A DNA stretch of 64,000 nucleotides from a virus: positions 4,634-68,633 of the IMG/VR virus record IMGVR_UViG_3300020392_000011; one strand, given 5' to 3'. The notes beneath the pieces are model-generated. The model had not been told where the DNA came from, did no database searches, and saw only the letters and a program-made list of their open reading frames with translations. Positions 50,307-52,354 of the stretch are shown piece after piece (within the stretch, counting starts at the first letter, position 1; every line of letters begins with the position of its first letter). The position numbers were made by a program, and so were the translations under genes.

Positions 50307-51140
50307 ATGGAACATTTGATTATACCAACTTTAGGCAGAACACATAAGCAAAAGACTTATAATAATTTGCCAGATAAGTGGAAAGCAAAAGTTAAATTTA
50401 CAGTTCAACCGCATGAGGTTGACGAAATGAGAGATATTTATGGCGATAAAGTTCTACCATTACCAGAGTCTATAAAAGGTTTATCACCTACACGACAATG
50501 GATATGGGATGAGTTTTATGGCACAAGACACATGGTACTTGATGACGATATGGAATACTTTAAATATAAAGGTCCAGCACCAGAACATCTAGATACTAAA
50601 TGGGAAACTCGTGATATGACGGACGAAGAGTATGACGATGCTTTTGACACATTTAATAAATGGTGTGATGAAGAGCAAATTTATCATGGTGGTTTTTCAA
50701 CATCATGGGTTGTACCAGATTTAAAATACTGGCCACATCAGAACAATGTAAGAATTATGACGAATAGTTATTTTGATTCTAAAAACTTGCCAAGAAATAT
50801 CGTTTGGGATAAATTACAAACCTCACAAGATTTCCATGCAAATTTACAGCTATTAACACAAGGATTTGCTAACAGAATTACAACAAGATATAGAGTTTCT
50901 ATATCAGCTACTAACGCAAAAGGCGGTTGTTCAGAATATAGAACGGTAGAATTAAGTAATCAAGTACACAGACAATTAGCTGAAATGTACCCAGATTATG
51001 TAAAATTAAAAACTAAAGTATTAGCTAATGGGCCATGGAAAGGTGAAGAACGAGTTACTTGTTTTATATCTTGGTCAAAAGCGTATAAGGATGCTATAAA
51101 AGCTAAAAATGCATCTACACTCGAGGACTTTTTAGGATGA
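50307..51140 (+). CDS. GT-A glycosyltransferase, TET-associated (TAGT)-like; probable DNA base glycosyltransferase
   Basis: IIPTLGR, TRQWI, MVLDDD, QDF..LQLL..G, NAKGGCS.YR; C-terminal TLEDFLG. Confidence 0.75.
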   Translation: MEHLIIPTLGRTHKQKTYNNLPDKWKAKVKFTVQPHEVDEMRDIYGDKVLPLPESIKGLSPTRQWIWDEFYGTRHMVLDDDMEYFKYKGPAPEHLDTKWETRDMTDEEYDDAFDTFNKWCDEEQIYHGGFSTSWVVPDLKYWPHQNNVRIMTNSYFDSKNLPRNIVWDKLQTSQDFHANLQLLTQGFANRITTRYRVSISATNAKGGCSEYRTVELSNQVHRQLAEMYPDYVKLKTKVLANGPWKGEERVTCFISWSKAYKDAIKAKNASTLEDFLG

Positions 51141-52354
51141 AACATGCAGGTATAGTACCACTCATTGGTGGAGAAATTTTAGCATCAGACGATGCTTATG
51201 GTAAAATACCAGAATACTTAATGACATATTCTGGATTTACAGGTAATGAAGAACATTTAGTTAAATACTATAAGGATAAAGGGCATAATGTTCCTTATCA
51301 TATACTAGATGAAAACCCTGGTATAAAACTAGAAAACGTCGACGTTGTATCGTCAGTATGTCCATGTGCTGGTTTAAGTACCTATCATAATTCACATGGT
51401 GAACAAAACGAAAATAACCAATGGATGGAAAAATCATCAGAGTATGTACTAAAACAGGTTAGGCCGAAAGTACTGTGGGGAGAGAATGCACCAGGCCTAG
51501 CTGGAAAGATAGGTGCATTCATGAGAGAGAAGTTGTACCATCTTGGCCAAGAAAATGGGTACAACTTCTCCATTTTCTTGACAAAGAGTTTATTACATGG
51601 CAATCCACAATATCGTAAAAGAACATTTTTCTTTTTTTGGCAGAAAGAACATTTTGGCGATCAAGTACCAGTATTAAATTTCATTAAAAAGGAAAGACCT
51701 ACAATACAAGAATTAATACTTAGCGTAAAAACAAATTTTCAAACTGAAATATTAAATAAAAAAACACCAAGTAAAGATGATCCATATTATAGATTTATGC
51801 TAGAAGAAGTCATGGGCGGAATGACACATGCTGAATATTCTAAATCAGTAGCTCATGAACCTAAATCAGTTACCATTGAATCTAGGTTAATGAAAATGGG
51901 TTATAGGCATTCATTGATAGCTGAGTGGATGGATGGATTTGGAGAAGAGTTTGAAAGAGAAGCTGCCAAAGCTAGACGTAAAGATGCTAAAATTGCTAGT
52001 GGTGGTAACATAATGCTTAGAGGTACAATTATACCAGTAAGCTACATAGGAGCATTTGTAGTACATTTACCAAAAGTAGTAGCACATCCAGTTGAAGATA
52101 GATATTTAAATATCGCAGAAGCAAAAGCTATTATGGGTTTACCAGATGACCTAGAAGTTATTGATCCACTAAAGAACTATAATCATATATGCCAAAATGT
52201 ACCATTTCATACAGCTAGAGATATGGCAGTTGAAGTACAAGCTTGTCTAAATAATAAAAGAGATAAGATAGAAACTAAATACTTATTTCAAAATAATTTA
52301 GCTCAAAAGTATGATTATACGAGAGACGAAAATAATTTGGAGGCTTTTTTATGA
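51137..52354 (+). CDS. C5-cytosine methyltransferase-fold protein with atypical SAM motifs
   Basis: Motif IV CPCAGLS, VI ENA, VIII PQYRKR, IX RYLNIAEAKAIMGLP; motif I reads VPLIGGE and motif X reads CQNV. Confidence 0.75.
   Translation: MKHAGIVPLIGGEILASDDAYGKIPEYLMTYSGFTGNEEHLVKYYKDKGHNVPYHILDENPGIKLENVDVVSSVCPCAGLSTYHNSHGEQNENNQWMEKSSEYVLKQVRPKVLWGENAPGLAGKIGAFMREKLYHLGQENGYNFSIFLTKSLLHGNPQYRKRTFFFFWQKEHFGDQVPVLNFIKKERPTIQELILSVKTNFQTEILNKKTPSKDDPYYRFMLEEVMGGMTHAEYSKSVAHEPKSVTIESRLMKMGYRHSLIAEWMDGFGEEFEREAAKARRKDAKIASGGNIMLRGTIIPVSYIGAFVVHLPKVVAHPVEDRYLNIAEAKAIMGLPDDLEVIDPLKNYNHICQNVPFHTARDMAVEVQACLNNKRDKIETKYLFQNNLAQKYDYTRDENNLEAFL

Follow-up and report, generated by a model that had tools for sequence, protein, structure and literature searches.

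A phage family with the fold and catalytic motifs of DNA cytosine methyltransferases, a rebuilt cofactor side, and a place in 5-hydroxymethylcytosine islands

What might an enzyme built like a DNA cytosine methyltransferase do in a phage whose cytosines probably already carry a substituent at carbon 5? The question is raised by a gene in viral DNA from IMG/VR record IMGVR_UViG_3300020392_000011 (positions 4,634 to 68,633; hereafter, the window), which covers 64 kb out of a 68.6-kb fragment whose completeness is estimated to be 38%. The gene, here called the MTase-like gene, encodes a protein with the fold and catalytic motifs of the cytosine-C5 DNA methyltransferases (C5-MTases), in which the motifs that ordinarily receive S-adenosylmethionine (SAM) are altered. 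It is a translationally coupled member of an island for 5-hydroxymethylcytosine (hmC) in aquatic T4-like phages, together with a deoxycytidylate (dCMP) hydroxymethylase of the T4 gp42 type, a dCMP deaminase, and a variable DNA-hmC transferase. The enzyme may act on hmC itself, and the evidence for that view, and against it, is weighed below.

The assignment of the fold begins with a structure predicted by AlphaFold2 using 121 homologues (mean pLDDT 95.9, pTM 0.93). Searched with Foldseek against the Protein Data Bank (PDB), this model finds M.HhaI as its top match (E 2.5e-14; TM-score 0.62/0.75, where 0.75 is normalised on HhaI), followed by HaeIII, DNMT1/MET1, DIM2, and CmoX (8YF3). CmoX, which is among the top matches by sequence as well as by fold, is the DNA cytosine C5-carboxymethyltransferase of Synechococcus phage S-B43 (PMC12783734). 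Both the Rossmann-like catalytic domain and the target-recognition domain of the superfamily are present. The Pfam family PF00145 matches residues 37-360 (E 8.7e-16; 58.7 bits, with a cut-off of 22), a span that leaves the region of motif I outside the match, and the NCBIfam model TIGR00675 (dcm superfamily) scores 34.2 bits, under its cut-off of 100.65. Thus, the C5-methyltransferase fold proposed in the earlier note, which was made from the letters of the window without database searches, stands.

To collect relatives of the protein, all of 1.84 billion cluster representatives were scanned with HMMER; 705 matched at E<=1e-3 and, of these, 208 at E<=1e-30, numbers well beyond chance. A word-indexed search gave 2068 clusters (90% identity) at E<=1e-10. 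The only name that a source attaches to any of these clusters is “site-specific DNA-cytosine methylase.” Conservation was then counted, column by column, in an alignment of 121 sequences: the query and the 120 full-length homologues (370-440 amino acids, 28-83% identical to the query) among 150 listed representatives. All counts of residues below refer to these 121.

The catalytic residues scarcely vary. The Pro-Cys of motif IV, the Glu-Asn of motif VI, and the QxRxR of motif VIII, which characterize the C5-MTases and which the earlier note had read as kept, are found in 109 to 121 of the sequences (P76 109, C77 120, E116 121, N117 119, Q158 119, R160 121, R162 121); the reading is refined only in that motif VI is ENA, not ENV. 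Motif IX is nearly as constant, with R322 in 111/121 and E328 in 115/121. Because C77, E116, R160, and R162 are near-invariant, the protein is argued to be an active covalent catalyst rather than a relic. The intact covalent-catalysis apparatus of the DNMT fold is thus present.

The cofactor side is another matter. The earlier note had read VPLIGGE at motif I and QNV at motif X, and had proposed that homologues be examined for conservation of PLIGG and QNV, with unconserved decay as an outcome that would speak against its inference. The readings are correct, and these positions prove to be among the best conserved in the alignment. At motif I, P8 is found in 119 sequences, L9 in 118, G11 in 120, and G12 in 117. 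At motif II, position 30 is Ser in 106 and Thr in 10, and position 31 is Tyr, Phe, or Trp in 114; F34 (111) and N37 (113) follow. At motif X, Q353 is found in 117 (Lys in 3, Glu in 1), N354 in 115, and V355 in 117. Conservation is thus 95-99% at each of P8, L9, G11, G12, Ser/Thr30, Q353, and N354, and by these columns the unusual motifs are under selection rather than decaying. Decay to a pseudogene was considered and rejected, since the reading frame is intact, the structure is predicted with confidence, and the deviations are shared across the family.

What do these residues replace? For motif X, the HMMER alignment answers directly. The family's CQNVP lies on GNAVP in HaeIII and on GRMVP in CmoX; where a canonical enzyme has Gly-Asn-(Ala/Ser)-Val, the family has Cys-Gln-Asn-Val, so the departure is better described as Gly-Asn becoming Cys-Gln, followed by Asn-Val-Pro. 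For motifs I and II, the answer is less direct. A family profile set against solved C5-MTases aligns only from motif IV on (profile position 42 at the earliest) and leaves motifs I-III unmatched, the N-terminal 60 residues of the protein have no alignment to solved enzymes, and hhalign of the profile with E. coli Dcm aligns residues 63-175 alone (probability 41%), with motifs I-III again unmapped. A canonical profile sought from homologues of Dcm was not used, the 120 best listed matches all being orthologues at least 74% identical.

Motifs I and II were therefore placed with one MAFFT alignment (12 family members, E. coli Dcm, and L111, a canonical methyltransferase from a metagenome-assembled genome, or MAG) together with the secondary structure of the model, a mapping that uses two usable canonical sequences (the mis-trimmed L112 was left out) and is weaker than a structural superposition. 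Here, V/I7-P8-L9 lie on Phe-Ala-Gly, I10-G11-G12 on (I/V)-Gly-Gly, Ser/Thr30 on the Glu of motif II, and Y31 on the aromatic residue that follows; the strand at 3-6, helix at 12-21, and strand at 28-30 of the model are consistent with this placement. Residues of M.HhaI were numbered through an alignment of Dcm with HhaI that shows HhaI residues 12-53 and 270-315 (F18-A19-G20-L21-G22-G23, E40-W41, G303-N304-S305). In these terms, the FxGxGG and Glu that mark SAM binding have become xPLIGG and Ser30 in the family, with Leu9 and Ser/Thr30 standing where M.HhaI, Dcm, and L111 have Gly and Glu.

The structure of CmoX suggests what this may mean for a ligand. In that enzyme, the adenine of carboxy-SAM (Cx-SAM) stacks on Phe25 and Phe48 and bonds to Asp69, the ribose bonds to Glu47, and Arg350, which replaces Asn304 of HhaI, touches the transferred carboxymethyl group (PMC12783734). 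By direct alignment, Gln353 of the family occupies this Arg350/N304 position. The equivalents of Phe25 and Glu47 are changed to Ile/Val and Ser/Thr. The aromatic at position 31 and Asp58 (88/121, with Glu in 10 more) may correspond to Phe48 and Asp69, the latter on the strength of secondary structure. Part of the adenine site may thus survive, and the side of the pocket that would hold the methionine and the transferred group appears to be the most rebuilt. In three of the 121 members, Lys replaces Gln353, which is reminiscent of the engineered variant of M.MpeI, mentioned in PMC12783734, that accepts carboxy-SAM.

Is carbon 5 really occupied in these phages? The neighbour that would occupy it is a homologue of thymidylate synthase (TS), 56% identical to T4 gene 42 by tblastn, with its catalytic Cys in FICTN at 49066-49080 and the sequence RSNDVIFGYRND at 49132-49167, which carries an “RSND....RND” signature. 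Such homologues can be sorted by specificity residues (E. coli ThyA numbering): according to PMC13326640, Asp at the N177 and L143 positions with D169 kept marks the hydroxymethyl type, and Asn in place of D169 marks a 5-hydroxy-dCMP synthase. The homologue in the window has N177D and L143D and keeps D169, which makes it a TS homologue of the hydroxymethyl-dCMP type; that it might instead be an RB69-type 5-hydroxy-dCMP synthase was considered and rejected, since Asp is retained at the D169 position. The dCMP hydroxymethylase that the earlier note had placed beside the gene is thus confirmed.

Further, the association is not peculiar to the window. Loci were gathered to a total of 99: the window, 2 cultured phages, 16 MAG contigs, and the best 80 of 579 IMG/VR candidates that encode a relative (searched with the family alignment). 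Of these 99, 74 have a gp42-type gene upstream on the same strand. The proportion rises with the length of upstream sequence available, to 71/79 with more than 3 kb, 60/64 with more than 5 kb, and 45/47 with more than 7 kb. The two exceptions among the 47 are cyanophage S-TIM54 and a contig of a Clostridia MAG (L099). In a first set of 83 loci, 62 carry the gp42-type gene; 57 of these match a literal pattern of the type “RS.D..FG..ND,” each of them with Asp at both specificity positions. Five miss the pattern: three by Tyr for Phe, one by Ala (Asp kept at both), and one (L029) by Cys at the D169 position. The L029 homologue (251 amino acids) reads RSNCAVHGFGND, with its Cys at the position that separates hydroxymethyl from hydroxy products.

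The remainder of the island follows the same pattern. A dCMP deaminase is present in 66 of the 99 loci. The gene immediately upstream of the MTase-like gene is a T4-type alpha-glucosyltransferase (AGT, PF11440) in 25 loci, a member of phrog_14998 (365 amino acids) in 23, a member of phrog_13881 (367 amino acids) in 22, a TET-associated-type DNA glycosyltransferase (TAGT) in 16, and a nucleotidyltransferase-kinase fusion in 3. Of the 92 loci in which an upstream open reading frame (ORF) comes close to the MTase-like start, 60 have the stop of that ORF overlapping the start by 4 bp. Downstream lie an exonuclease, phrog_1574, the gp45 clamp, gp44/62, and RegA, or else UvsX. The association was also examined in reverse, by taking the 80 IMG/VR loci closest to the hydroxymethylase of the window; 40 of these hold at least 8 kb downstream, and 32 of the 40 have the MTase-like gene. 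In short, hmC islands, mostly those of aquatic metagenomes, often include the gene but can do without it.

The family appears to be restricted to phages. No plasmid match was found for it. A collection with one genome for each of 185,579 species, searched with two narrow peptide patterns, gave 16 matches, all on MAG contigs, and 14 of the 16 have T4-like phage neighbours (L099 has none, and L100 few). The nearest ESM-Atlas clusters are 100% viral. An origin in bacterial restriction-modification is unsupported by these plasmid and genome searches, narrow as the peptide patterns were.

Three cultured phages carry the gene: Pseudoalteromonas phage XG4 (vB_Psh_XG4), cyanophage S-TIM5/S-TIM54, and Bacillus phage G. 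All encode a TS homologue of the N177D type. In XG4, a dCTPase of the T4 gp56 type directly follows the MTase-like gene, so that little unmodified cytosine should be left there. In S-TIM54, an ORF annotated “ThyA” (L001:5114-5956, minus strand) lies 2 kb away on the opposite strand and reads RSNDMATGVPLD. Asp at its N177 position suggests that it probably modifies dCMP and does not serve as a thymidylate synthase; its L143 position has Cys. In phage G, gp301 is the best structural match among viral models (TM-score 0.77/0.73; other viral methyltransferases reach at most 0.59 on the query), an alpha-glucosyltransferase lies 2.6 kb from it, and a second TS homologue (N177D/L143D) lies about 13 kb away. 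This homologue reads DVPCTN and RSNDIIFGTPYD, and phage G also has a glucose-1-phosphate thymidylyltransferase (L117:1468-2514, L102:1763-7056). Such gene content suggests that the DNA of phage G is of a glucosylated hmC type. The earlier premise that carbon 5 is probably already occupied is therefore strengthened, by the gp42-type hydroxymethyl-dCMP synthase, by its presence in 45 of 47 loci, and by all three cultured carriers, which were checked.

When SAM is absent, ordinary C5-MTases are able to strip hmC of its hydroxymethyl group or to join thiols to it, and this chemistry provides a precedent for a natural enzyme that does something similar. In the mechanism that we favour, for which we infer substrate, cofactor, and product alike, the base that the enzyme flips out of freshly replicated phage DNA would be hmC, a cytosine already substituted at C5. 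Cys77 would add to carbon 6, with Glu116 and Arg160/Arg162 in their usual roles, and the C5 substituent would then point into the rebuilt former SAM site (Gly to Leu9, Glu to Ser/Thr30, Asn-Ser to Gln353-Asn354). With the 5-CH2-O bond made labile by the adduct, an exocyclic methylene intermediate would result, and a nucleophile or cofactor bound in the remodelled pocket would trap it. The outcome would be a second cytosine hypermodification, dependent on sequence context, beside O-glycosylation. Action on hmC is favoured because it explains together the linkage to hmC synthesis, the conserved change of the pocket near the position of the transferred group, and the retention of catalysis. We give the general proposal, that the protein activates hmC in phage DNA through a covalent Cys-C6 adduct and a remodelled former SAM pocket, a probability of roughly one in three. 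A more specific version, in which a natural DNA-level converter of hmC expels the hydroxyl (or a phosphate or sugar attached to it) and adds a nucleophile from the former SAM site to give a C-N-, C-S-, or C-C-linked product, is offered tentatively, as a minority possibility.

Several observations weigh against a role on hmC. The gp56-type dCTPase was not found in the window's fragment, in three relatives that are 47-76% complete, or in S-TIM54; unmodified cytosine may therefore exist in these phages as a substrate for plain methylation. The pocket has been judged from sequence and secondary structure alone, and two of the four adenosine contacts of CmoX (the position-31 aromatic and Asp58) seem to be kept, so a SAM-like ligand may still be bound. 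An unusual motif I is also found in other C5-MTase lineages, such as the “SGIEA” type in L113. The gene is dispensable, being absent from 8 of the 40 close gp42 loci that hold at least 8 kb downstream. Further, 1368 cultured-phage records match the hydroxymethylase query and only 9 of 50,697 match the MTase-like protein; the cultured T-even phages are without the gene. Last, adjacency to glycosyltransferases could merely reflect a hypervariable slot between conserved genes. Much of this would be expected if the protein were an ordinary, though divergent, SAM-dependent methyltransferase that makes 5-methylcytosine (5mC) at a short motif in residual phage cytosine or in host cytosine, and we regard this as nearly as likely as action on hmC. 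PF00145 scores over its cut-off, the fold is that of M.HhaI, motifs IV, VI, VIII, and IX are intact, an aromatic is retained where M.HhaI has W41, as is an Asp close to the position of D60, replacing Asn by Gln is conservative, the deviant lineage in L113 is presumably active, and a gene that close relatives can do without is what one would expect of an accessory protective methylase. But Leu9 and Ser/Thr30 are near-invariant just where canonical enzymes have Gly and Glu, and CmoX likewise has the Glu (PMC12783734); the TIGR00675 score stands far below its cut-off; near-obligate linkage to a dCMP hydroxymethylase is unexpected for a generic methylase; the dCTPase of XG4 adjoins the gene; and no member of the family was found on plasmids or, in the scan of genomes with two narrow patterns, outside MAG contigs, of which 14 of 16 have T4-like phage neighbours.

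Other explanations change the donor or the target. If, by analogy with CmoX, a modified SAM or some other donor with an adenine supplied a non-methyl group to carbon 5 of unmodified cytosine, this would make sense of a conserved Gln (or, in three members, Lys) at the position that selects the transferred group, of an adenine pocket that is apparently kept in part, and of the high rank of 8YF3 among sequence and fold matches. Such a transfer is unlikely. CmoA, the Cx-SAM synthase (TIGR00740), was found in none of five records, S-TIM54 and XG4 among them, in a search whose E. coli control was positive; the family has neither the SPPC motif nor Arg350; no conserved neighbour that might make a donor is common to all island types; and the hmC linkage argues that carbon 5 is already taken. 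The CmoA/CmoX system itself was rejected on the first two of these grounds. SAM-starved C5-MTases deaminate cytosine, and this counts for a different proposal, in which the enzyme, free of cofactor, would attack the cytosines of unmodified host DNA, for example through deamination promoted by the Cys-C6 adduct or through covalent trapping, with the phage's hmC-DNA immune, in parallel with the cytosine-specific shut-off and degradation of host DNA by T4. Such an attack on the host would explain both the loss of SAM contacts and the tie to hmC whichever sugar decorates it. The proposal is purely inferential, the conserved polar N37, D38, Q353, and N354 at the former cofactor site suggest a bound ligand, and coupling to a glycosyltransferase fits an operon for DNA modification better than one for host shut-off; we therefore think it improbable, slightly more so than a CmoX-like transfer. 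A non-catalytic role, as a base-flipping or DNA-binding accessory or as an anti-restriction decoy derived from a methyltransferase, fits the altered SAM motifs and the loss of the gene in some relatives, yet is very hard to credit when Cys, Glu, and both Arg are 99-100% conserved across sequences with an overall identity of only 28-50%, which would not be expected without catalysis. A small share of the probability, larger than that for a non-catalytic protein and below that for attack on host DNA, goes to something outside all of these.

The features of the window on which these arguments draw are collected in Table 1.

Table 1. The modification island of the window and the motifs of the MTase-like protein (positions are those of the window)
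Feature	Position	Strand	Basis
T4 gp43-type DNA polymerase, left boundary	43084..45606	+	phrog_262, E 0
Primase, then staphylococcal-nuclease-like gene	between 43084..45606 and 48607..49305		
126-aa ORF directly upstream of hydroxymethylase	48264-48644		weak PHROG “hydrolase” match, 1.7e-11
gp42-type dCMP hydroxymethylase (TS homologue)	48607..49305	+	PDB 1B49, E 1.3e-72
dCMP deaminase	49591..50043	+	PF00383, E 4e-19; phrog_174
DUF6552 small protein	50009..50305	+	PF20189, E 3.9e-19
TAGT	50307..51140	+	PF20691, E 2e-14; phrog_842, E 1.4e-36
C5-MTase-fold protein, distinct phage family	51137..52354	+	open ORF, 405 aa
Motif I position, VPLIGGE (beta1-alphaA loop), residues 7-13, instead of FxGxGG	51155..51175	+	translation
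Motif II position, T30-Y31; canonical Glu + aromatic (M.HhaI E40-W41)	51224..51229	+	alignment mapping
Motif IV, CPCAGLS, residues 75-81; P76-C77, catalytic Cys77	51359..51379	+	aligned to HaeIII, HhaI, CmoX motif IV
Motif VI, GENAP, residues 115-119; ENV-type Glu116	51479..51493	+	translation
Motif VIII, PQYRKR (QxRxR), residues 157-162	51605..51622	+	translation
Motif IX region, HPVEDRYLNIAE	52085..52120	+	aligned to HaeIII RRLTVRE
Motif X, ICQNVP, residues 351-356 (QNV 353-355), vs (I/F)GN(A/S)VP	52187..52204	+	HMMER alignment
Nucleotide-sugar epimerase/dehydratase-like protein of the short-chain dehydrogenase/reductase (SDR) family	52351..53103	+	PF01370, E 7.5e-22; phrog_540
Short nucleotide-sugar dehydrogenase, UDP-glucose dehydrogenase-like	53103..53963	+	PF00984, PF03721
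Peroxiredoxin (AhpC/TSA)	54000..54503	+	PF00578, E 1.6e-22
UvsX recombinase, right boundary	54759..55823	+	PF21134; phrog_97, E 2.8e-87
gp41 helicase	after UvsX		

The order of these genes is the T4 order 43 - 42 - beta-gt - uvsX - 41, with the slot for modification enlarged. Within it, adjoining genes share 4 bp, stop over start, at two points: the TAGT gene with the MTase-like gene, and the MTase-like gene with the SDR gene. The SDR protein (250 amino acids) opens with KILLTGTQFHRRGFIANH, not the standard GxxGxxG. The dehydrogenase after it (286 amino acids) matches TIGR03026 at E 1.5e-38, under the cut-off, over profile positions 78-298 of 413, and its C-terminal part is missing. The two may form a pared-down pathway to an unusual uridine diphosphate (UDP) sugar for the TAGT. 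The 126-aa ORF has no Pfam match and no PDB match under E 0.9; its cluster (c7) is present in 44 of the 83 loci of the first set. It could be a small nucleotide pyrophosphatase that replaces the dCTPase of T4. Farther along the window, at 60334-62967, lie a DUF6267 protein (E 7e-105) and then a cytidylyltransferase-like and DUF5824 protein (phrog_3041, E 5e-102), a pair that is conserved in phages downstream of replication genes.

Two further observations concern relatives elsewhere. In 16 of the 99 loci, a gene like that for 5-hydroxymethyldeoxyuridine (5-hmdU) DNA kinase (PF18723 helical domain, E 2e-11) is found between the dCMP hydroxymethylase and the MTase-like gene, two genes ahead of the latter and upstream of a phrog_13881 protein (16 of the 22 phrog_13881 loci). 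Thirteen of the 16 also have a gene like that for inositol-1-phosphate synthase and a 173-aa ORF. One example is L086:3961-8004; others are found in L024, L026-L029, L034, L041, L066, L092-L094, and L096. The presence, among hmC genes, of a DNA kinase like those of thymidine hypermodification suggests a cytosine hypermodification activated by phosphorylation. Some members of the family, in turn, are long: P0084, P0037, P0043, and P0079 have 598-1462 amino acids, an IPLIGGS signature, and C-terminal extensions of up to about 1000 residues. In the extensions, the only Pfam match is a C-terminal zf-CXXC domain in one member (E 6.6e-7), a module of the eukaryotic DNMT1, TET, and MLL proteins; no match to the extensions was found among neighbouring phage ORFs.

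Why should one care which explanation is correct? The label “DNA cytosine methylase” extends over 2068 clusters, and if these enzymes make no 5mC, then a large block of phage annotation is wrong. In that case, abundant marine phages hold either a new chemistry on cytosine or a new cofactor for the DNMT fold. If hmC is in fact converted, then an undescribed hypermodification, the cytosine counterpart of thymidine hypermodification, is widespread in aquatic T4-like phages, and to restriction, CRISPR, and type IV defences, phages with a new base would look different. If, instead, the enzyme is a plain methylase, then the Gly of motif I and the Glu of motif II are dispensable for the use of SAM in the C5-MTase fold. 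Enzymes of the CmoX type and of the TET/glycosyltransferase type are already tools for mapping epigenomes. The conserved Gln at the position where CmoX reprograms the transferred group is a concrete handle that can be mutated, and three cultured carriers make the question directly testable.

How, then, does the family compare with systems already known? With M.HhaI, M.HaeIII, and E. coli Dcm, it shares the fold, motifs IV, VI, VIII, and IX in their usual order, and a separate target-recognition region between motifs VIII and IX. It departs from canonical C5-MTases in having xPLIGG, Ser/Thr for the Glu of motif II, and (C/A/T)QNVP for GN(A/S)VP. Unlike them, further, its genes were found on phage or phage-like contigs, not beside restriction genes, and are tied to dCMP hydroxymethylase. 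The closest structural relative among predicted viral structures is gp301 of Bacillus phage G, an outlying member of the family that carries the annotation DNA cytosine methyltransferase. It has CPCxGLS, ENAP, and a Gln at the N304 position (AQGVP), but is only about 25% identical, with FIFGGS at motif I, a motif VIII without PQ, and Gly for Asn354.

A similar setting is that of the phage islands that join a C5-MTase to TET and glycosyltransferases. There, cytosine in replicated DNA is first methylated and then oxidized by TET to hmC (PMC8256090; bioRxiv 10.1101/2023.12.21.572611). As in those islands, a gene of the C5-MTase family adjoins a TAGT, with an epimerase and a redoxin near. Here, in contrast, hmC would arise before replication, from the gp42-type enzyme. 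A TET-fed pathway is not supported: Tet_JBP (PF12851) was found in none of 56 records (the one holding the window, 5 larger or complete relatives, and 50 more), in a search without a positive control and over records that are mostly fragments. The preprint does mention methyltransferases near ThyS-associated glycosyltransferases (bioRxiv 10.1101/2023.12.21.572611). A search of full-text literature, with supplements outside its reach (including those on the inactive C5-MT clades III-VI of PMC8256090 and the MetaGPA domain lists of PMC8670742), found no description of the family or of its link to gp42.

The gene order places the island closest to the T4 module gp43 - 42 - b-gt - uvsX, with which it shares the polymerase, the dCMP hydroxymethylase, the slot for a DNA-hmC transferase, uvsX, and the helicase; T4 itself has no C5-MTase-like gene in the slot. 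In chemistry, the nearest analogue may be the hypermodification of thymidine, which is said to use a 5-hmdU DNA kinase and substituting enzymes, to act on 5-hydroxymethyluracil, and to involve no enzyme of the C5-MTase fold. The likeness, one of analogy and not homology, is that a 5-hydroxymethyl pyrimidine in DNA provides the handle, its oxygen being activated and then giving way to another group. In structure, the instructive comparison is with CmoX, likewise a phage enzyme of the C5-MTase fold in which the product-setting position of M.HhaI, N304, is altered; here, the alteration is conserved. CmoX has Arg350, SPPC, a CmoA partner, and the Phe and Glu contacts to adenosine (PMC12783734), where the family has Gln353, CPC, and neither the Phe nor the Glu. 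By its fold and catalytic motifs, then, the family belongs to the C5-MTase superfamily, from which it departs in two defining motifs on the SAM side, and it is not CmoX.

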